A stretch of DNA of 64,000 nucleotides from contig VMER01000001.1 of the NCBI GenBank assembly GCA_007375645.1, forward strand, positions 209,211 to 273,210, read 5' to 3'. The translations under genes were made by a program, and so were the position numbers. The stretch comes from Parcubacteria group bacterium LiPW_15. GTDB taxonomy: Bacteria > Patescibacteriota > Minisyncoccia > UBA6257 > 2-01-FULL-56-20. Shown piece by piece: positions 4,533 to 24,403 of the stretch (positions within the stretch are counted from its first letter, which is position 1; each line of letters starts with the position of its first letter). A model generated the notes under the pieces. That model ran no database searches. It saw only the letters and a list, made by a program, of their open reading frames with translations, and had not been told where the DNA came from.

Positions 4533-5027
4533 TCATCGCTGTCGAGGCGCACGACCCCGCATGCCCATGCCGGGTACGGCGTCTTCCTTGGAATGCTGGG
4601 GGTGCCGCTGTCCGCAGTCGATGCAGACAGGATCCATGAAGTAGACCTTCCAGCCCACGCCGATGGCGAGCTGGCCCAGTCCTCTGACCTTGAACACCGC
4701 GCGCATCTCGGTCAGGAGGAAGGCGTCCACGTCCTTGATCTTTTCGGCCAGGTCGGCAGCCTGGGCCACCCTCTCCTTGTCCGCCGGAGAAAGACCCCCG
4801 AGCAACCTGGAGACCATCTCCATCGTCGTGAGCTTGGACCCCTTCTCCTTGAGCTCAGCGTCCCAACGGTGACGCAGAGCCACGAGCTTCCGAAGGTTCT
4901 CCGGAAGGATGCCGAAGAAGTCGAGCTTCTGGTCCGGGATCGAGAGGCTCCGTTCCGCGGCGGCGATCTCCTCGAGGGTGACGGTCTCGGCCTCCGCGCC
5001 GAGAATGGTCGTGTACTTGAAGTCCAT
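4533..5027 (-). CDS. Hypothetical protein (high-GC cassette gene 1 of 3)
   Basis: 164 aa ORF with balanced composition; high GC; downstream hairpin plus T-run terminator at about 4395-4430. Confidence 0.5.
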   Translation of the reverse strand: MDFKYTTILGAEAETVTLEEIAAAERSLSIPDQKLDFFGILPENLRKLVALRHRWDAELKEKGSKLTTMEMVSRLLGGLSPADKERVAQAADLAEKIKDVDAFLLTEMRAVFKVRGLGQLAIGVGWKVYFMDPVCIDCGQRHPQHSKEDAVPGMGMRGRAPRQR

Positions 5028-5167
5028 CTGAACTTCCTACCTTTCTGCCCATTCTTGGGCGGTCGACGAACTGTGCGTATTATATTTAAATATACTTTTT
5101 TGTCAATAGATTATGAAAAGCGGCCCCCGTAGGGGGCCGCGTTGGCGGAAAGGAATGTGTTCGAAAC

Positions 5168-5584
5168 TCAGTTCACGGGGAGGGACTCGACCCAGCCGAG
5201 CTTCCACCCGGCTCGAAGGTCGACCGAGGACATTCCCCAAAGGATGGGGAATTCGTCCTTGGCCTGCCGGTCGAAGAACTTCTGGGCGAGTTCGTAAGAG
5301 CTCTCCACGCGAAGGTTCTTAAGGAAGAGTTCCCTGGGAATCTCTTCCCCGGCGTGAGCATCCATGAACTCGTCGGCATTCACATTGAGCATCACCAACT
5401 CTTGCTTGAGGTCAGCGATGACGCAGCGAAGCCGGATGAGAAGTTCGCTCGCCAGACCGACGGGATGGAAGATGCCTTCCTGATCTTCCGTCCGAGGATT
5501 GAGCTCGGCGGCACATTTGCTGATTTTGTCCGGCGAAACCGTGACGCAACGGAGCCAAAGCTCCTTGCCGAACGACAGTTCCAT
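5168..5584 (-). CDS. Hypothetical protein (high-GC cassette gene 2 of 3)
   Basis: Start chosen at MELSFG because AAGGAG RBS lies 8 nt upstream; ORF track shows a longer 5168..5626 form. Confidence 0.5.
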   Translation of the reverse strand: MELSFGKELWLRCVTVSPDKISKCAAELNPRTEDQEGIFHPVGLASELLIRLRCVIADLKQELVMLNVNADEFMDAHAGEEIPRELFLKNLRVESSYELAQKFFDRQAKDEFPILWGMSSVDLRAGWKLGWVESLPVN

Positions 5585-5726
5585 CTTCTCTTCTCCTTCT
5601 GCCCGCTTGGGGCAACTCTCTCTCAAAGAGCCGATTGCTATGTAACGACTATAAGTATACGGATTTATTTGATTTTGTCAACCATAATTTAAAAGGCCTC
5701 CGGTTTCCCGAAGGCCTGCGAAACGG

Positions 5727-6152
5727 CTACATCAGCTTATCGTTCTTTTGACTTGCCAAGCCGAAAAGCGCCTGGATCCCGATGGATGTCTGTTCGTTTT
5801 GTGCTTTAGCGCGGACTATCTTCCACCCGCTACGAAGGATGACTTCGTTGATTCCGGCTTCCCAGAATCTCAGTCGTTCCGTAATACGGAAGTCCATCTC
5901 TATCCTGATGATTCCCGCGCGGAAACGACAGAATGTCGCTTCAATATTGTCACCCCGTTTCTCGGCCTCGTCCCCCTCAAGGATGTAGTATGCCCACAGG
6001 TGGAAAAATCGTTTCTCGCCCTCAGTCATATCTCCGATTGGCTCTTCGTCCAAGCCAATCGGAGTATCTACTTCCACGTGGAGTTCGCCCAGATCTTTAC
6101 CAGCGAGTTCGTCATACATTCCGCCATCCAACCAGGACTCTGGCTCGTCCAT
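5727..6152 (-). CDS. Hypothetical acidic protein (high-GC cassette gene 3 of 3)
   Basis: 141 aa; GGGAGG RBS upstream of ATG at 6152; high GC. Confidence 0.5.
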   Translation of the reverse strand: MDEPESWLDGGMYDELAGKDLGELHVEVDTPIGLDEEPIGDMTEGEKRFFHLWAYYILEGDEAEKRGDNIEATFCRFRAGIIRIEMDFRITERLRFWEAGINEVILRSGWKIVRAKAQNEQTSIGIQALFGLASQKNDKLM

Positions 6153-6255
6153 AGTCTTGCCTCCCTATCGAGCTAGATTCAGTTTTAAATAAAACCGTCG
6201 GGAAATGCAAACTTCCTTGATAAAAACGCGTTTCTTGCTTATTATATTGAAGTTC

Positions 6256-6339
6256 GCACAGGTGGTAGAGCGGTCAAATACAAGAGACTGTAAATCTCTC
6301 GCCCATGTGGCTACGCAGGTTCGAATCCTGCCCTGTGCA
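6256..6339 (+). tRNA. tRNA-Tyr (anticodon GTA), long variable arm
   Basis: Manual fold: acceptor GCACAGG/CCTGTGC, 3-bp D-stem with GAGCGGTCAAA loop (nearly identical to E. coli tRNA-Tyr), anticodon stem AGAGA/TCTCT with loop CTGTAAA, long variable arm, T-arm GCAGG-TTCGAAT-CCTGC, discriminator A; CCA not encoded. Confidence 0.8.
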
Positions 6340-6462
6340 CAATATAAAGATTTTGCCCTTACGGTGGTGTCTCGTTGTGACATCGACAAACGTGTTCGAA
6401 TCTCCCGAGATTACTCGGGATTACGCATCTCTACGTCGCTACGCTTCAAGAGCTGCGAGAAC

Positions 6463-6476
6463 TGCCCTGTGCACCA
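6463..6476 (+). repeat. Direct duplicate of the tRNA-Tyr 3' acceptor end, here with encoded CCA (TGCCCTGTGCACCA)
   Basis: 12-13 nt identical to 6327-6339, lying 125 nt downstream of the tRNA; att-site-like or remnant of insertion into the tRNA 3' end. Confidence 0.45.
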
Positions 6477-6494
6477 ATACAAAAACCGCCCGAT

Positions 6495-6854
6495 TTAAAT
6501 CGAGGCGGTTTCGTTTTCTTCTTGGGGCTTCTCCCCTGTTATTTCTTTGAAGTCGGGTTTTGGTTTTCCGTTCCCCTCTTTTTTGGCAAAATTTTGAAGG
6601 CGATTCGTTACCGAGTTGTCTACCCGCATTATCACGACTTTCGCGCGGCGCAAGAACTTCGCAAAAAACGCGTTCAAGACGGCATCCACTTTCTCCGGCA
6701 CGCCGGAAGTTACCCACTTCTCGAGCGGACTCTGTTTTATCTCCTCTGCCGGAGTCTCAATCCGAGGCAAAACCCGGGCCACCATAAAAAGAATGGCGGC
6801 GAGAGAAATGAGAAAGATATTGGTGATGATGAAAGTAAACATGATGCTTACCAC
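6495..6854 (-). CDS. Small hypothetical membrane protein
   Basis: 119 aa ORF with an N-terminal TM helix; GTG/ATG start ambiguous, weak RBS; fills the gap downstream of tsf. Confidence 0.3.
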   Translation of the reverse strand: MVSIMFTFIITNIFLISLAAILFMVARVLPRIETPAEEIKQSPLEKWVTSGVPEKVDAVLNAFFAKFLRRAKVVIMRVDNSVTNRLQNFAKKEGNGKPKPDFKEITGEKPQEENETASI

Positions 6855-7387: not shown

Positions 7388-8146
7388 TTACGCAGTCGGG
7401 ATTTCCTTCTTTACCGCGAGCGCGGCAGCCTCTTTCTGTCCGGAGTGAATGGCTTCCTTAATTTTCGCGAGGAACCAATTGATGCTCAAGCGGGACTTGG
7501 TGTTGCCCGGAACGAAATAATCCACATCATCCGGGTTGGTGTCGGTGTTCACATACGCGACTATCGGGATGTTCAACTTTCTCGCTTCGCGGATCGCGGC
7601 TTTGTGGGAATTCGGATCAATGACCACGAGAACTTCCGGACGGGTGGTCATATTTTCCATTCCGCTCATAAGTTCATCCATCTTCTCCAAGTCTTTCCTG
7701 ATACCGAGCTGTTCTTTCTTGGTGTACTTTTCAAAAGCACCCGCGGCGTTATCGGCTTTCAACTTTTTATAGTATTCAAGGCGCTTGCTGATAACTTTAT
7801 AGTTGGTGAGCGTTCCGCCAAGCCAACGCACGGAAACCGCCGGATAGCCGAAAGCTTTTTGAATATCGGTCACGGCTTCAAGCGCGGCAGGCTGAGTACC
7901 GACGAAAAGCATCGAGGTTCTGGCCGCGGCTTTGGCTTTTACGAAATCCATAACTTCGTCGAGTTTTTCCAAAATCTTTCCCATATGGATTATTTCCACG
8001 TTGTTTCTGGTCGTCAAAATAAAAGGACGCATCCTGGGATACGTTTTAGTCTTGGTGCGACCGACAAAAACTCCGGCCTCCACCATCGCGTTGGTTTCCG
8101 GGTCGTCTATGGTTTCTACTGGCGCTACAATCGGTTCGTCTGCCAT
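7388..8146 (-). CDS. rpsB: 30S ribosomal protein S2
   Basis: 252 aa; strong S2 family similarity (FVGT..., VIDPN...IP). Confidence 0.95.
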   Translation of the reverse strand: MADEPIVAPVETIDDPETNAMVEAGVFVGRTKTKTYPRMRPFILTTRNNVEIIHMGKILEKLDEVMDFVKAKAAARTSMLFVGTQPAALEAVTDIQKAFGYPAVSVRWLGGTLTNYKVISKRLEYYKKLKADNAAGAFEKYTKKEQLGIRKDLEKMDELMSGMENMTTRPEVLVVIDPNSHKAAIREARKLNIPIVAYVNTDTNPDDVDYFVPGNTKSRLSINWFLAKIKEAIHSGQKEAAALAVKKEIPTA

Positions 8147-9375: not shown

Positions 9376-9456
9376 TGCCGCAGGATTATACGATAATTTT
9401 ACAAAATTGAAAAGAAAAGGAGCCCCCGAAGGGGCTCCGAAAAGAACCTGGAAACG

Positions 9457-10692
9457 TTACGTTGGCTTTACTGCGGATGCGTCCATGAGCGCTCCGGTCG
9501 CTCGTTCGATCCTGAGCGAGAGGAGCTGGCCGATGAGGCTGCCGGCCGCGCTGCCGACGATATAGGGAATCGCCTTCTCGGGAGTGATGGACCCGATGAC
9601 CAGCTGATGCATGGTGAGGAACCACACCCCATTCGAAAAGACCGAGGCCCAAGCAAGGTACTGCTGATTGTTCCGTTGACCGGCACGGCTCTTCAAGGTG
9701 AAGCTCAGCGCCTGCCAAGCCGAGAAGAACAGAAGCACCGCTCCGCCGGCGTATCCGATCCACGGATTCACTCCGAAGAACACGGTCTGCGGCACCAAGA
9801 GAACGCCGAGTAGAACGAGCTGGATCTTGGGCCAGGAGATGCTCCCCGTCTTTTCGCGCTCGGCTTCCTCGCTCTTCGTGAAGACGTGAATATCGAACCT
9901 GGCCTTGATGCGCTCCGCCATCTTTTGCGCCAGATTGGCGCCGATCAAAGAGCCGATGACGCTTCCGGTGGTCGTGGGCAGGAACATCGCCCAGTCCATC
10001 TTGAACTTGACGAGGATCGCGAGCTTTGCGAAGTCCGCGCCAAGATTCAAAACCACGGCGAAGAAATGGAACCAGTAGCTGTCGGCGCTTCGCGCAACCC
10101 GAAGGATCGCGAACGTGAAATTGCCGAAGATGGTGAGCGCCATGATGCTCACGAGAACCCAGGCATTGAGAGTCAGCGTGGTTTGCTCTTTCCCCGGCAG
10201 GAGAACCGTGTACCCGTTCAAGGAATAGATCTGTGAGGTAAGCAGCGCGAGGAGTACCGCAACCGTCGGCCAAAGCTTCAGAAGCTGAGGCCTTCCCTTC
10301 GCGCCTTCGGGGCTCAGACCCAACGCGGATTCAATCTTGATCGAAATGGTATTGCCGTGCAGGGTCCCCAGGATGGTCGCGAACACGTAGGGCGCGAGAA
10401 GCGCAGTGGGAAGATCGCTCTTTACGAGAAGGCGAAGCGACCAGAAGAAAGCGAAGTTAGCCGCAACCGCCGCCAAGAGATGGTAGGCGTTGCTGTTGCG
10501 ATTCGCGGACCTGCTCTGCAGGCTGTAGGTGGTGTTCTGCACGTATGCGAGAACCATCACCAAGGCGAGCGTTATGCCCGGGGCCGCGGAAAATGTCCCG
10601 CCCCAGAAAAAGAGCAGCTGGAGAACGATGATCGCTCCGATGATGCGCAAAGGATTCGTGTTCCAGAGTCGAAGCCAGAAGGATCGTTGCAT
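9457..10692 (-). CDS. Polytopic membrane protein with internally duplicated multi-TM domain (high GC)
   Basis: 411 aa; two homologous halves each ending ...GS(V/A)(I/A)GSLIG..L...R; about 10 TM helices; second gene of a minus-strand high-GC operon; a terminator hairpin lies at about 9405-9435, between its 3' end and mnmA. Confidence 0.6.
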   Translation of the reverse strand: MQRSFWLRLWNTNPLRIIGAIIVLQLLFFWGGTFSAAPGITLALVMVLAYVQNTTYSLQSRSANRNSNAYHLLAAVAANFAFFWSLRLLVKSDLPTALLAPYVFATILGTLHGNTISIKIESALGLSPEGAKGRPQLLKLWPTVAVLLALLTSQIYSLNGYTVLLPGKEQTTLTLNAWVLVSIMALTIFGNFTFAILRVARSADSYWFHFFAVVLNLGADFAKLAILVKFKMDWAMFLPTTTGSVIGSLIGANLAQKMAERIKARFDIHVFTKSEEAEREKTGSISWPKIQLVLLGVLLVPQTVFFGVNPWIGYAGGAVLLFFSAWQALSFTLKSRAGQRNNQQYLAWASVFSNGVWFLTMHQLVIGSITPEKAIPYIVGSAAGSLIGQLLSLRIERATGALMDASAVKPT

Positions 10693-10800
10693 GGTTTTCC
10701 CCTTTCAAGTTGCAACTTATTGCTGCGTTCATACTAAACTTTGAGTTTTTAAAAAACAAGAAAGGCCCCCGACGTGAGTCGGGAGCCAAGGTGCAGTGAA

Positions 10801-13596
10801 TCAGATGGGTTCGGGAAGGAACTTGTTCCAGTCGAAGTGTCTGGGCTTCGCGAACCAATCGCGGAGGTAGTCGTGCGGAAGCATCCGCATGAGGATCGGA
10901 CCGGCATCCGGCCCATCCGCAGGGAAGGACACGAAGCAGACTCCAGTGTTGTTCGGAGGGAATCCGCCAGTCGAGCCGTAGAGATCGGTGTGCACTCCGG
11001 CAGCGCAGATGGCATAAACTCCCTTCGAAGTCTCCACCAGGCAGTAGAAGTGCTTATCCCCTACGATGGTAACGACGAAGAACTTCATGAGCCCGTAAGT
11101 GTCGTCACCGCGGACATAGTCGCTCTTCACGAACGCAGCCAGGAGATCCGACCAGCTCGAAAGCTTGGGCGGAGAACCGAGGAAGCGAAGACCCCACTCG
11201 TACCTTCCGGGCGCCTTGATGGTGCCCAGGCCGAAGGTTTCGCTGCCGAATCGCGGGGCGCAAACGGCTTTCTCGAGGAAAGCCTCCTTGCCTCGCCAAA
11301 GCGGCGATGCCAGCAGTCTGGCCCGAAGATGCCTTGCGGGATACTCGCCTTCCAGATCCGCGCCATCCAACGTGTGGATGCGATGATTTCCGTTCGGGAA
11401 GTTCAGCACGCCCACATCGCGGGTGTCGGAGATCTTCTTGTTGATCTCGCTGACACCGCGGATGGTAAGACGAGACTTTTCGAAGCGCCGGAGAACCGCG
11501 CTGTAGAAATCCACGTTCGGGTCGATGTGCCGGTCGTAGACCTGCATCATCTGATGGAACGGAAAGTGATCGCCGCGAAGATGGTGCTGACTGATGCTGA
11601 TCCGGTTGACCTCTTCGGTCAGCCTGAGAACCGCACCCATGTCGCCTCGCTCCGCTGCGCGCTGGATGTCAGCGGTGATTCCCTGGAGCCAAGCCTCGAT
11701 ACGGATGAGCGGCATGACTTCAGGGTCCGGACGGTAAGTGGGATTGAACCACAGATTGCCGTCGGTCGCATCGTCCAACTCCGCCACCATGTGAACGGGC
11801 ATGTCGCTAGCGGTAAAGAGACCTCCACGACGCATGAGCTCGATTGCAGCCTCGTTGACACCGAGATGCATGCGCTGTTTGGGGTCCCAGATGAACCGTT
11901 TCGCCGAACCGCCGAAGTGGTTGTCGGTGTTGACGTAGACGTTGTAGTACTTCGTCTTGGGGTAAGGGAACGCGAAGTTCGTGCCAAGCACCGCTTCTAC
12001 CTTGCTCAAACTCTTGATGGGCAAGGAATCGACGCTCAGAATGCCGTTCGACAGACTGATGAAAAGCGCGCCCGGTTTGAACTGCGGATTGAAGATCGCC
12101 TTGGAGATGGGATGCATCTTCCTGGTCGAGTCGCGCAACGAATCCGTAAGGAAAACGTCGTCGACACAGATCGGCGCCACGTGAACGAACTTCGTCACCG
12201 GCATCCCATCCTTGGAATCCTCCCGACCGACAAGCCGGTGATTCAAGGCATAGGGATGACAGATGATCGTAAGGTCGGCCAGCGTGTCGTTGAAGACTTC
12301 GCTGCCGTACTTGTCGCCGAAATCGGCCAGGAGCTCGTCAGAGACCGCGTCCCTGCTCGGAACGTGAAGCTTGATGCTCTTGTCATGGAGCTTGAGATAG
12401 ACGTTGCCCTGGCTGATGACCTTGCAGTTCGGGATCGCTTTCTCGAACATGCCGACCACCATGGCTCGCAGACGCAGCCGCGTGAGTTCGACCAAACGAT
12501 CGGCAACGTTGGTGAGGATGATGCGCGCTCTCATCTCGGAGAGACGCTTGACCTCCAGCTCCCACTTGTTGGTGGCCGCAAGCCCGCGACGGTGCTTCAT
12601 GGCAGCCGCGAGCTGGCCCTTGGCCATGGAAAGCTCCGCCTCGACTCGTCCCTGCTTTTGGATGGTGAGGTAGCGGCACTCGCTTTGCGCCGCCTCCGCG
12701 ATGATTTCCTCCTCCCGATATCCGAACGCGACGTAGATCGGGCCGGGAAATTCCGGAGCTCCATCCGGTCGAGTGGCGATCTTCTGCCATCCATCCATGA
12801 CTTCGCCGAATTTCTCGGCAATGGTTTGGAAGATGAGCTCGCCAGGGGGCTGGTCGCGCAAGACGCGCTTGACCTCCTCACGATAGTACCTCGGGAACCG
12901 CGCGGGATTGATGCGGATTCCGGACACCGCCGCCCTGTAGACCTTGTTGGTCCAAACGGTCTTCTTGGTGTTCATGTCGATGGTGTTCGTGAGGATGACC
13001 GCATCGGCTCCACGGAGCCTGGCCCCGATCAGAGCCCGGCGAACCGGGTTGTCGGCGATGTTGCGATCGTACTTCAGTCCGATCAGCGCGCCGTTGATGA
13101 GCGCGATTCGCGCGTTGGCACCGCCGGGCAGAACAAAGGGCTCCTGAGGTGTGATCTTCGGAAATTCGAAGCCCTCGGCGCCGGCGGGAAGATCTTCCAT
13201 GCTCAGACGCCCAACGCCAGCGACGAACTTCGTCGTGATACTGGCGTTTGTCCGCCCGGTCAAAGACTTCACCTTGTCCTTCAGAAGCTTGGACGGGATG
13301 TAGGGGTAAAAGTCCTTGTGAAAACGCTCGATGGGAACGTTGTGCCGAACGGCTTTCCTCAGATCCTCGAGCACCTTGTGAGTCCAGAGGTGTTCGCGAA
13401 CCCTGCGGGCGAATTGGCGCATGTCCAGCCGATAGGAGTTGCCGGCAAGCTGCTCGGCAAACTCCTTACTGATGGCACCGTAGATCTCGGTCACGCCGTT
13501 CTTCTTCAGAAGGAAGCCTTCACGGATCAATTCATGAACTCTCGCAGAGAGTCCGGGAATCTTCCAGGCGTCTTTTCGTTTCGCTTTGGTAGCCAT
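10801..13596 (-). CDS. Large hypothetical protein (931 aa, high GC), possible phosphoesterase/nuclease-like motifs
   Basis: Protein-like composition on the minus strand versus low-complexity Arg/Asp antisense ORF on plus; GNH-like and GD-x-H motifs but no confident family; first gene of an operon with the 9457..10692 membrane protein. Confidence 0.6.
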   Translation of the reverse strand: MATKAKRKDAWKIPGLSARVHELIREGFLLKKNGVTEIYGAISKEFAEQLAGNSYRLDMRQFARRVREHLWTHKVLEDLRKAVRHNVPIERFHKDFYPYIPSKLLKDKVKSLTGRTNASITTKFVAGVGRLSMEDLPAGAEGFEFPKITPQEPFVLPGGANARIALINGALIGLKYDRNIADNPVRRALIGARLRGADAVILTNTIDMNTKKTVWTNKVYRAAVSGIRINPARFPRYYREEVKRVLRDQPPGELIFQTIAEKFGEVMDGWQKIATRPDGAPEFPGPIYVAFGYREEEIIAEAAQSECRYLTIQKQGRVEAELSMAKGQLAAAMKHRRGLAATNKWELEVKRLSEMRARIILTNVADRLVELTRLRLRAMVVGMFEKAIPNCKVISQGNVYLKLHDKSIKLHVPSRDAVSDELLADFGDKYGSEVFNDTLADLTIICHPYALNHRLVGREDSKDGMPVTKFVHVAPICVDDVFLTDSLRDSTRKMHPISKAIFNPQFKPGALFISLSNGILSVDSLPIKSLSKVEAVLGTNFAFPYPKTKYYNVYVNTDNHFGGSAKRFIWDPKQRMHLGVNEAAIELMRRGGLFTASDMPVHMVAELDDATDGNLWFNPTYRPDPEVMPLIRIEAWLQGITADIQRAAERGDMGAVLRLTEEVNRISISQHHLRGDHFPFHQMMQVYDRHIDPNVDFYSAVLRRFEKSRLTIRGVSEINKKISDTRDVGVLNFPNGNHRIHTLDGADLEGEYPARHLRARLLASPLWRGKEAFLEKAVCAPRFGSETFGLGTIKAPGRYEWGLRFLGSPPKLSSWSDLLAAFVKSDYVRGDDTYGLMKFFVVTIVGDKHFYCLVETSKGVYAICAAGVHTDLYGSTGGFPPNNTGVCFVSFPADGPDAGPILMRMLPHDYLRDWFAKPRHFDWNKFLPEPI

Positions 13597-22146: not shown

Positions 22147-23967
22147 TTATCCCCCCGAACGGTTGGCGCGCTTCTCGTCTATTTCGGTCAAATAAATTTT
22201 GCGCATCCGGATGGATTTCGGGGTCACCTCCACCAATTCATCATCCCCGATATATTCCAAAGAATCTTCAAGCGATAAGGTGCGCGGAACTTTCAAAAAT
22301 TCCATTCCGCCCACGCCCTTGGAGCGCATGTTGGAAAGCTGTTTTTCTTTGCAAACGTTCACACGGATATCCATTGCTTTGGCGTTCTGGCCCACGATCT
22401 CTCCTTCGTAAACTTCAAGGCCAGGACTGATAAAAAGTTCTCCCCTGTCTTCGGAACCCATCATTCCGTAAGCGCGGGTGATACCGGACTCGGAAGCAAC
22501 CAGACTTCCGTGCGGGTTGGATTCAAAGTCCCCCTTATATTCTTCGTAATCTTCAAAAATGGAATTCATTATTCCCATTCCTTTGGTCTTGGTCATAAAT
22601 ATAGTGCGCAACCCGATGAGGCCCCGGGTCGGCACCAAAAAGTCCATATAGGCCATGCTGTTTTCCACGCGCATGTCTTTCATGTTGCCCTTACGCTTGC
22701 CCATCTCTTCGATGACCACGCCGGTCGCGTCTTCCGGAACCTCCACGGACAAAACTTCCATCGGTTCAAGTTTCTTTCCGTTCTTCTCGTGGAAAATAAC
22801 CTGCGGACGGGATACCTGGAATTCATAACCTTCCCGGCGCATCTTTTCGATAAGGATGGAAAGGTGGAGTTCGCCGCGTCCGGCAACTTCCCAAGTATCA
22901 AAGGTGTCGGTCGCGTTCACGCGCAAAGCCACGTCGGTATCTACTTCCTTGGCCAAACGCTCGGCCAAGTGCCTGGAGGTCACAAATTGGCCTTCCTTGC
23001 CCGCGAACGGAGAATTGTTAACCATAAAATTCATTTTCACGGTCGGCTCTTCAATATCTATGGTCGGAAGCGGCTGCGGATTGTCTTTGTCGGTGATAGT
23101 CTCGCCGATAGAAACATCCGTGATACCCGCGATAGCTACAATGTCTCCCGCGGTCGCTTCGTCCACATCCACACGCGCGAGTCCGTCAAAAAGCATCACG
23201 TTCGTGAGCGACGCTTTTTTGGTCACGCCGTCGCGGCCGATGTGCGCGACTTCTACGTTCTTTTTAAGAGTTCCGGAATAAAGCCTGCCGATGGCGATCT
23301 TGCCCTTATAGTTGTCGTAAAAAAGATTAACGGTGAGCATCTGAAGGGGCTTGGTCTCATCCACTACCGGAGACGGAATATATTTTATTATCGTATCGAA
23401 AACCGGACGGATATCCGTCATCTCCGAGAGCTCGTGCGCATAACCGGCTTTCCCTTGCGCCCCGGAAGCGTAAACCACCGGAAACTCCGCCTGCTCGTCG
23501 GAAGCGCCAAGCTCGATGAAAAGATCGAAAGTGCGCTCCAAGGCCCAGTTCGGACGGGCGCCGGGCTTATCAATTTTATTTATAACTACGATAACTTTGT
23601 GTCCGGCCTGAATAGCTTTTTTTAAAACGAATTTGGTCTGCGGCATTGGACCCTCTTTGGCATCCACCAAAAGCAAAATACCGTCCACCATGCGCATAAT
23701 GCGCTCCACTTCTCCGCCGAAATCGGCGTGGCCCGGGGTGTCCACTATATTTATCTTGATTCCCCCGTAGTGAACCGCGGCATTTTTGGAAAATATGGTG
23801 ATTCCCCGCTCTCTTTCGAGTTCGTTGGAATCCATAATGAGCGTGTCATCGGCGCCGGTCTTCAATTTAAAATCCGCGGACTGCTTCAAAAGAGCATCCA
23901 CGAGAGTGGTCTTGCCGTGGTCAACATGGGCAATTATTGCGATGTTTCGTATGTTTTTTGGGTCCAT
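22147..23967 (-). CDS. typA: Translational GTPase TypA/BipA
   Basis: G-domain [21 protein letters not shown]; EF-G-like domains; start chosen at [10 protein letters not shown] (the ORF track extends 22 codons upstream without a stop). Confidence 0.93.
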
Positions 23968-24245
23968 AGTAGTCTTGATTTTTAATTCGCGAACGTTGAC
24001 GGGAAGGGGGTCGGGGAAACGGGAGCCCGCCACAGCGGGCAGAAGCTATATAATCCATCCGCTAAAGCGAATGGTGGCCGTGTAGGAAACTTACTCTCAA
24101 TTGGCAGCGAGGAGAAAATAGGTATTAGATATTTTATCCGAGCGAACCAATTGACAGCTCGCTGTCTAACCGAGAGGTTGTGAGGGAGCGAAGCGACGTC
24201 TAGGTGCGCGATTATTGCGATATTTCGTATATTTTTGGGATCCAT
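23968..24245 (-). repeat. About 215-bp GC-rich structured insert bounded by an imperfect duplicate of the typA 5' end (ATGGATCCCAAAAATATACGAAATATCGCAATAATCGCGCAC)
   Basis: 24200-24245 on the minus strand is about 86% identical to the true typA start at 23925-23967; the insert contains several stem-loops (GGCAGCGAG...CTCGCTGTC, CCATCCGC-TAAA-GCGAATGG). Confidence 0.5.
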
Positions 24246-24316
24246 GTGATAAAAAAATGGCGCTTGGCCAGTTAGAACTTCATCTGTGCGTTAGATTATG
24301 CGCTATATTTGTCGAT

Positions 24317-24346
24317 TTGACAAGGGATAGCCGGAAAATCTATACT
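24317..24346 (+). promoter_or_regulatory. Sigma70-like promoter (TTGACA-18-TATACT)
   Basis: Sequence match; 57 nt upstream of the 24404 start. Confidence 0.4.
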
Positions 24347-24403
24347 TGCGCTCAGCAGACAAACACAATCCGACAAATTCCTGTCCGAAAGGAGAATGGG
24401 ACC

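Follow-up and report, generated by a model that had tools for sequence, protein, structure and literature searches.

An intact tRNA-Tyr gene in the 64-kb stretch of DNA analysed here, which belongs to a Patescibacteria (CPR) metagenome-assembled genome (the whole stretch is called the window below), is followed, as read from its sequence, by a 134-nt non-coding insertion that is accompanied by a duplication of the target end. Comparison with related contigs established the insertion, its boundaries and its absence from relatives, as well as a homologue beside a tRNA-Tyr gene elsewhere and a parallel case at the 5' end of typA in the same window.

The tRNA-Tyr gene and its two 3' ends

A single tRNA, tRNA-Tyr(GTA), was identified in the 64-kb window by ARAGORN at 6256-6340, and the Rfam tRNA model (RF00005) scored 61.4 bits at 6256-6339 of the plus strand. 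The gene is an intact class II gene with a long variable arm, and its sequence is identical to that of the tRNA-Tyr at L002, a related locus. Homology with the region upstream of the L002 tRNA extends from 6230 to the start of the gene. A consensus scan detected a promoter-like sequence (TTGATA, 17 nt, TATTAT; 10 of 12 positions matched) at 6217-6245 of the plus strand, 10 nt upstream of the tRNA. Because CAA, and not CCA, comes after the discriminator A at 6339, the gene does not encode its CCA end. These results agree with a preliminary description of this DNA, in which the tRNA was called canonical but lacking an encoded CCA. Among relatives, encoded CCA is variable, being present in L003 and absent in L004 and L172.

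The 13-nt sequence CTGCCCTGTGCAC, which comprises the 3' strand of the T stem, the 3' strand of the acceptor stem, the discriminator and one further base, has only two exact sites in the window, both on the plus strand: 6328-6340, where it ends the tRNA gene (copy 1), and 6462-6474 (copy 2). When up to one mismatch was allowed, there were still two matches, compared with 0.02 expected, and two matches were reached in 0 of 100 shuffles. Copy 2 is followed by CA, so that it reads ...GCACCA, with a terminator after it; 6462-6476 would thus represent the displaced ancestral 3' end of the tRNA with its encoded CCA. The 13-nt copy followed by CA had been recognized in the preliminary description; the full repeat proved to be longer, at 21-22 nt including 3' flank, with one 1-nt indel and one mismatch (CTGCCCTGTGCAC-AATATAAA versus CTGCCCTGTGCACCAATACAAA). 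Its extension into the flank reads CAC-AATATAAA versus CACCAATACAAA when one indel is allowed.

The tRNA part of the two copies is identical at 13 of 13 positions, and the indel and the mismatch fall within nine bases of flank. The flank of copy 1 (CAATATAAAGATT / GCACAATATAAAG) is of the type found after the tRNA-Tyr of L172 (GCACAATATAAA; GCACAATATAAAA). The flank of copy 2 (AATACAAAAA) is of the L002 type, and the 18-nt sequence CTGCCCTGTGCACCAATA is identical at 18 of 18 positions to the L002 tRNA end plus flank. Two flank types that occur naturally in the clade, combined with a perfectly repeated tRNA part, fit the joining of two alleles better than a decayed local duplication. By sequence, copies 1 and 2 thus resemble two alleles of one gene end.

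Downstream of copy 2, an inverted repeat at 6486-6520 forms a hairpin (CCGCC...GGCGG) with T-runs on both strands. A terminator-like site was detected on the minus strand; the plus-strand terminator is a manual reading, since a bulge breaks the stem rule of the tool. This hairpin is likely a bidirectional terminator that ends both the tRNA transcript on the plus strand and the gene for a 119-aa protein on the minus strand, the stop codon of which (6495-6497) falls within it. No terminator was found between tRNA-Tyr and the insert, and the first good one lies after copy 2.

Relatives were collected with the rpsB protein, the 22-nt tRNA end and homologues of the 119-aa protein; the collected loci are labelled L002-L175. 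Alignment with L002, L037, L038 and L045 delimited an insertion of 134 nt at 6341-6474 of the plus strand (equivalently 6328-6461). When these 134 nt are removed, the window tRNA runs into CCAATACAAAAACC and the hairpin at 6486-6508, which gives the layout of tRNA-Tyr-CCA, A-rich stretch and terminator. In L002, the identical tRNA is followed by CCA, AATAAAATATCC and a terminator. In L037 and L038, tRNA-Tyr is followed by CCA, AAAGAAAA and a terminator, and the corresponding region of L045 starts alike. No second copy of the tRNA end was found nearby in L002, L037 or L038. Comparison of orthologous loci, which had been put forward in the preliminary description as a check for a conserved tandem tRNA arrangement, therefore revealed no such arrangement; the site is uninterrupted in L002, L037, L038 and L045. 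Given the uninterrupted layout of the relatives, 6341-6474 is a lineage-specific insertion bounded by the tRNA-end repeat. The restored layout and the 18 nt identical to L002 suggest that copy 2, with its terminator, is the original 3' end and that copy 1 came with the insert. For annotation, the locus holds one tRNA-Tyr gene, with CCA not encoded, and 6462-6476 is a gene fragment.

The insert contains no plausible open reading frame, and no inverted repeat joining both ends of 6341-6474 was found. The spacer does contain the T-loop-like sequence and the CCCGAG-ATTA-CTCGGG hairpin that had been reported in it. The former, GTTCGAATC, lies at 6394-6402 of the plus strand and is identical to positions 6319-6327 of the tRNA T arm; alone, this match is weakly significant, its score being reached by 38 of 1,000 shuffles. 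Joined to 6462-6476, GTTCGAATC would make up 24 nt copied from the tRNA 3' end, with 59 nt (6403-6461) in between. The hairpin, designated hpB, spans 6403-6420 when its closing T-A pair is included (TCCCGAG ATTA CTCGGGA). A second hairpin, hpA, at 6424-6457, has a 9-bp stem (CGCATCTCT / AGAGCTGCG) and a 16-nt loop. On the minus strand the hpA loop reads TGAAGCGTAGCGACGT, a variant of a motif, GGAGCGAAGCGACRT, that is common to L031, L045-50 and the element at typA; the version in the insert has 15 nt with two mismatches. As had been concluded from the letters alone, the spacer is not a canonical tRNA: no tRNA, tmRNA, intron or other RNA family was detected in 6340-6476 by ARAGORN or by Rfam searches to E = 10 over 6150-6650. 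Apart from the tRNA, no RNA family reached the Rfam gathering score in the window. The predicted fold of 6340-6478 was not more stable than those of shuffled sequences (z = -1.1).

Two candidate sources of the spacer were tried and rejected. As a decayed full or half copy of tRNA-Tyr, the spacer gave a best local match reached by 38 of 1,000 shuffles and an anchored extension, in which the region upstream of copy 2 was compared with the variable arm and T arm of the tRNA, reached by 154 of 2,000 (874 of 2,000 for L031). The sequence upstream of gmk in L002 (8246-8285, aligned with 6391-6430) gave a borderline value (9 of 300 shuffles) in the wrong orientation.

Neighbourhood of the tRNA-Tyr locus

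The locus lies among housekeeping genes (rpsB, tsf, mnmA, recO and a gene for a class II aminoacyl-tRNA synthetase), and the 119-aa neighbour protein is identical to one of Parcubacteria group bacterium LiPW_15, with the closest named relatives in Candidatus Liptonbacteria. Relative to rpsB-tsf, tRNA-Tyr is inverted in the window when compared with L002, L031, L038 and L045. The orientation of tRNA-Tyr to rpsB-tsf flips among the collected loci, with L002, L031, L032, L038 and L045-50 set against L037, L042, L043 and L051. The window and L037 have the same junction, at which the inverted tRNA promoter meets the upstream region of a 141/147-aa gene. A history of the inversion was sought from L002, L037, L031 and the window, and no single path of inversion or deletion fits all of the junctions.

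Gene content at the locus also varies. Between the 115-aa gene and tRNA-Tyr, gmk and a 79-aa ORF are present in L002 and L037, and gmk alone in L031 and L032. Both gmk and the 79-aa ORF are missing at 6153-6495 of the window (compared with 7808-8937 of L002), and no gmk was detected in the 64 kb by tblastn. A LAGLIDADG_3 or PD-(D/E)XK_5 gene is found directly upstream of tRNA-Tyr in L032 (3590-4390), L035 (2815-3615) and L031 (3075-3449). The genomes with these genes have an identical 115-aa neighbour protein and differing tRNA sequences, and the tRNA-Tyr locus looks like a hot spot of homing-endonuclease-type gene conversion.

A high-GC cassette of three genes (4533-6152) on the other side of the tRNA had been mentioned in the preliminary description. 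A link between this cassette and the insertion was not borne out. A homologue of its first gene, of 141 aa, is found at the corresponding position of L002, similar-sized genes occupy that position in L031, L037 and L045, and a G+C content of 0.57-0.64 is found elsewhere in the window too, for example at 9400-13400. The 141-aa ORF (5727-6152) has 39% identity to the syntenic ORF of L002 (9166-9597), the values for the 119-aa protein and S2 being 70% and 96%, and it belongs to a fast-evolving family that has no Pfam match.

Related elements at typA and in other Patescibacteria

Searches with nhmmer and pairwise alignment revealed that 6398-6493, on the minus strand, is homologous to a small element that follows tRNA-Tyr at L031 (3577-3720). 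The E value was 2.8e-6 to 1.3e-5, depending on database size, and the reciprocal search was concordant. The hairpin hpB, which is kept at L031 3659-3677, has seven pairs with one compensatory change and none broken, and hpA has nine pairs with three compensatory changes and one broken, for a total of 16 pairs with four compensatory changes and one broken. The two-hairpin module spans 6403-6457 in the window and 3622-3677 in L031. The proportion of cells pairing was 97% in register and 32-56% when the 3' partners were shifted by one to three columns; these values were reached by 36 of 500 shuffles, a comparison in which two sequences have little statistical power. The orientation of the module relative to the tRNA is opposite in L031 and the window, and no direct copy of the tRNA end was found after the L031 element. 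The element is absent in L032, although the 115-aa neighbour protein there is identical. Thus, presence of the element varies between close genomes.

The same topology, a duplicated target end around a small insert, had been pointed out at the 5' end of typA, and it is supported there by an empty site at L174. A small non-coding element of 236 nt (23968-24203, plus strand) follows typA codon 14 and is related to the wider family described below. The real ATG of typA is at 23967-23965 on the minus strand, and the element is antisense to the gene. It carries GGGGTCGGGG, CCGTGTAGGAAA, AACCGAGAGGTT and GGAGCGAAGCGACGT. Beyond the element, at 24204-24245 of the minus strand, codons 1-14 occur a second time, directly beside the ancestral upstream flank. 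In L174, the gene is uninterrupted, the upstream flank is as in the window, and TypA is 99% identical to the window protein, with a DNA identity of 92.3% (140 of 1,821 nt differ).

The functional codons 1-14 (23926-23967) and the second copy differ at third positions only, in 7 of the 14 codons. This divergence is roughly twice the overall nucleotide divergence between the typA genes of the window and L174, and both copies are about equally far from L174 (7 and 6-8 of 48 sites). Since a neutral pseudo-copy should also change at other codon positions, the synonymous-only differences indicate that one copy evolved as coding sequence elsewhere and was imported with the element. The region upstream of typA (24246-24400) differs from L174 (1213-1368) at one position in 155 nt, a stronger conservation than that of synonymous sites.

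Elsewhere among Patescibacteria contigs, tRNA-Thr(TGT), tRNA-Thr(GGT) or tRNA-Tyr is followed, 116-188 nt downstream, by a second copy of its own 3' end. Examples are L021 (two), L014, L045-50 and the L009 and L015 types, with partial relatedness among the sequences in between. The repeat measures 12-70 nt over all collected cases, and the insert is ~110-280 nt in relatives. L021 has one such element behind tRNA-Thr(TGT) and another behind tRNA-Tyr; both contain a conserved core, and each terminates in a copy of the 3' end of the tRNA that it follows, of 19 nt for Thr and 12-15 nt for Tyr. These two related elements (7408-7580 and 7843-8012) lie within 600 nt, and each begins with an inverted copy of the T loop of its tRNA (TTCAAAT versus TTCGAAT). 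A compact version is located behind tRNA-Tyr in L045-50, and another in L014. In the L009 and L015 types, tRNA-Thr is followed by a unit of ~132 nt that is repeated ~1.4 times (L009 406-600, L015 8596-8760), and this unit is also found behind tRNA-Thr in L006, L008, L010, L016, L019, L027 and L028; the resulting direct repeat of 47-70 nt takes in the tRNA 3' end, the spacer and an inverted copy of the T arm.

By nhmmer, the E value was 2.7e-4 for L045 against the L021 element behind tRNA-Tyr, 7.5e-3 for L045 against the window typA element, and ~1e-9 to 4e-8 for the two L021 elements against each other. Short motifs common to the family include GGGGTCGGG, CCGTGTAGGA and GGAGCGAAGCGACRT. The core found in L021, L045, L014 and the window typA element (23984-24203) consists of GGGGTCGGG, a hairpin, CCGTGTAGGAAA, AACC-GNRA-GGTT and GGAGCGAAGCGACRT, with an inverted T-arm copy before it and a target-end copy after it. 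An inverted copy of the tRNA T arm opens most elements of the wider family, and the first hairpin has compensatory changes among its members. Rfam searches with E up to 10 or 5 gave no credible match in L021 7250-8150, L045 2700-3130 or window 23900-24320. A hairpin domain, TTGGCAGCGAGG ... GAGCGAACCAA, occurs in the window typA element (24099-24152), in the L014 tRNA-Tyr element (5324-5388) and at L175 2360-2410; it is upstream of typA and co-oriented with it in L175, and antisense to typA in the window.

The window tRNA-Tyr insert has the terminal target copy and the two-mismatch version of GGAGCGAAGCGACRT. Its significant similarity is to the L031 element only, in which the family's 5' motifs are present. 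The insert itself has neither the GGGGTCGGG-hairpin-CCGTGTAGGA part nor an inverted copy of the T arm. Because the link to the family runs through the L031 element and the two-mismatch motif only, assignment of the insert to this family on sequence grounds is tentative.

The exact 22-nt 3' end of tRNA-Tyr (GGTTCGAATCCTGCCCTGTGCA) was also found, with no tRNA called, in metagenome contigs L011, L012/L029, L018, L020 and L022-L025. Such sites may be fragments copied from a tRNA gene, or else tRNA-like ends whose contexts are unrelated.

Origin and significance of the insertion

We propose, with moderate confidence, that the insertion is a coding-free integrative element, decayed or non-autonomous, that came with a target-end copy of its own and left attL/attR-like repeats behind. 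The incoming DNA would have carried its own last nucleotides of tRNA-Tyr with a short 3' flank, and would have recombined with the chromosomal gene inside the shared tRNA-end segment. The imported copy (6328-6340, flank CAATATAAAG, no CCA) would now complete tRNA-Tyr, and the original 3' end with its CCA and terminator (6462-6520) would have been displaced 134 nt downstream. With one end imported and the other displaced, the two copies would be attL/attR-like junctions. The insert, which has no room for a gene, would be either the remnant of a decayed integrative element or a non-autonomous element served by a recombinase in trans, similar to a cis-mobilizable element. An excised site would run the tRNA body directly into ...GTGCACCAATACAAAAACC. 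The tRNA-Tyr probably stays functional, in which case it would need 3' trimming and CCA addition, and transcription probably continues across the insert to the old terminator.

The same process would have acted at the typA 5' end of the window. A shared insertion/excision mechanism had been suggested in the preliminary description; the imported copy of typA codons supports the shared mechanism. No recombinase was detected by Pfam in 20 window ORFs or in six ORFs beside the L014 and L021 elements. A scan of viral contigs with the tRNA end returned only one tRNA-Leu. Scans of viral contigs with GGGGTCGGG...CCGTGTAGGA and with GGAGCGAAGCGACRT returned high-GC coding sequence or numbers of matches close to chance, none of which proved by nhmmer to be a real element. 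As the viral-contig matches included no free donor, an origin from a phage or plasmid was rejected. With no recombinase found and no known RNA matching the family, the recombination mechanism is an inference, as is the choice of the imported copy. An origin of copy 2 as cDNA of a mature tRNA was also rejected, because orthologous genes encode CCA and the repeats of L021 and L009 include non-tRNA flank.

Loss of integration genes with retention of attL and attR defines a described category of elements, the cis-mobilizable elements or CIMEs (PMC5704250). As in att duplications and CIMEs, the 3' end of a tRNA is directly repeated, the gene is made whole by the proximal copy, the original flank stays with the distal copy, the repeats enclose no integration genes, and relatives have an uninterrupted site (at tRNA-Tyr, at typA in L174, and in L032 compared with L031). 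Unlike these, the insert has 134 nt here and ~110-280 nt in relatives, several different targets are used, no cognate integrase or parent element was found, and hairpins are kept by compensatory changes. To our knowledge, such maintenance of hairpins is not a property of attP arms.

Replacement of a gene end is known from SXT/R391, which replaces the 5' end of prfC, and from e14 or phage 21, which replaces the 3' end of icd; these elements are tens of kilobases long and encode an integrase. As with these elements, the typA gene-end copies differ only synonymously and the gene is intact. The typA target, the conserved N-terminal GTPase region of a translational GTPase, may be compared with SXT/R391-type targets. 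Unlike SXT/R391, e14 and phage 21, the typA insert is non-coding and has 236 nt. The inserts also resemble MITEs in being small and non-coding, in varying in presence between relatives and in being bounded by a repeat of target sequence. Unlike with MITEs, which have a short target-site duplication of fixed length, no terminal inverted repeats were found, the duplication is long, variable (12-70 nt) and always a gene end, and differences between the two copies can point to separate origins.

An origin in place, with no mobile element involved, appears unlikely. The repeat would then be a local tandem duplication of the tRNA-Tyr region, or a by-product of the rearrangement behind the tRNA inversion and the gmk loss, with the downstream copy decayed to its last 13-22 nt. 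Consistent with such an origin, the locus is rearranged, with tRNA-Tyr inverted and gmk missing, both copies are followed by tRNA-Tyr-type flanks, and the spacer can be aligned colinearly, with weak similarity, to the tRNA body. That similarity is not significant, however, and the spacer has a significant homologue beside tRNA-Tyr elsewhere, with compensatory hairpin changes. The tRNA part of the repeat is perfect despite the diverged flank, and the typA case cannot be a decayed in-place duplication. Further, L037 has the inversion junction of the window but a single tRNA end with CCA and terminator, which indicates that the insertion was a separate and later event.

A more unusual kind of integration is conceivable, although we regard it as doubtful: the tRNA-Tyr and typA inserts may represent a new class of structured non-coding mobile elements of Patescibacteria, ~110-280 nt long, that enter the ends of essential genes. 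Targets would be the 3' ends of tRNA-Thr and tRNA-Tyr and the 5' end of typA. Each element would bring a replacement end, often with an inverted T-arm copy, and its fold, as RNA or single-stranded DNA, would act in target choice or recombination, rather than the inserts being inert att scars. Two observations weigh against the integrative-element reading: compensatory hairpin changes point to a structured RNA or single-stranded DNA more than to the arm sites of an integrase, and tyrosine integrases with sequence specificity would not usually place one family of elements at four targets. Att scars do not typically have such small and similar sizes, several targets and conserved hairpins, which leaves room for such an element. 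The kind of event is known; its miniature, structured form recurring in Patescibacteria appears to be undescribed in a limited literature search.

It is improbable that the insert was kept as a functional trailer RNA because the tRNA-Tyr transcript crosses it. Copy 2 with its CCA would then serve as a processing signal that releases a small RNA, or would modulate 3' maturation of the tRNA. The position of the first good terminator, after copy 2 and not before the insert, and the retention of two hairpins through compensatory changes are compatible with this proposal. A precedent is offered by the 178-bp repeats behind E. coli tyrT, the source of rtT RNA, each of which includes the final 19 nt of tRNA-Tyr; an rtT family exists in Rfam. 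Like these repeats, the window locus has the 3' end of a tyrosine tRNA repeated downstream and probably co-transcribed. Unlike them, it has one extra copy and no tandem array, and there is no match in sequence or in Rfam, rtT included. Several findings oppose this proposal: the closest relatives lack the insert, its fold is no more stable than those of shuffled sequences, and the typA member is antisense to its target gene. The module at L031 lies on the opposite strand relative to its tRNA, so a co-transcribed sense RNA cannot be the conserved unit.

Finally, a split, permuted, intron-containing or second tRNA, with the true 3' end at copy 2 or another tRNA at 6340-6476, which the preliminary description had raised as a split or extended gene and which might be read into the CCA encoded at copy 2 and not at copy 1 and into the T-loop-like GTTCGAATC, has next to no probability, since copy 1 already completes a canonical 61-bit cloverleaf identical to L002, the spacer scores no tRNA in ARAGORN (tmRNA genes included) or in Rfam searched to E = 10, some relatives encode CCA and others do not, and the orthologous loci hold one uninterrupted gene.

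Integration routinely leaves a partial copy of a tRNA 3' end behind, and the finding itself is therefore not surprising. Unusual features are the length of 134 nt with no gene, the second case of the same topology at typA within 64 kb, and the presence of partly related, hairpin-bearing small elements behind tRNA genes in several Patescibacteria. The genomes of Patescibacteria are very small, and their mobile DNA is little known. If the elements are still mobile, they would constitute a compact system that enters essential genes without inactivating them, and they would mark sites of gene flow between lineages.
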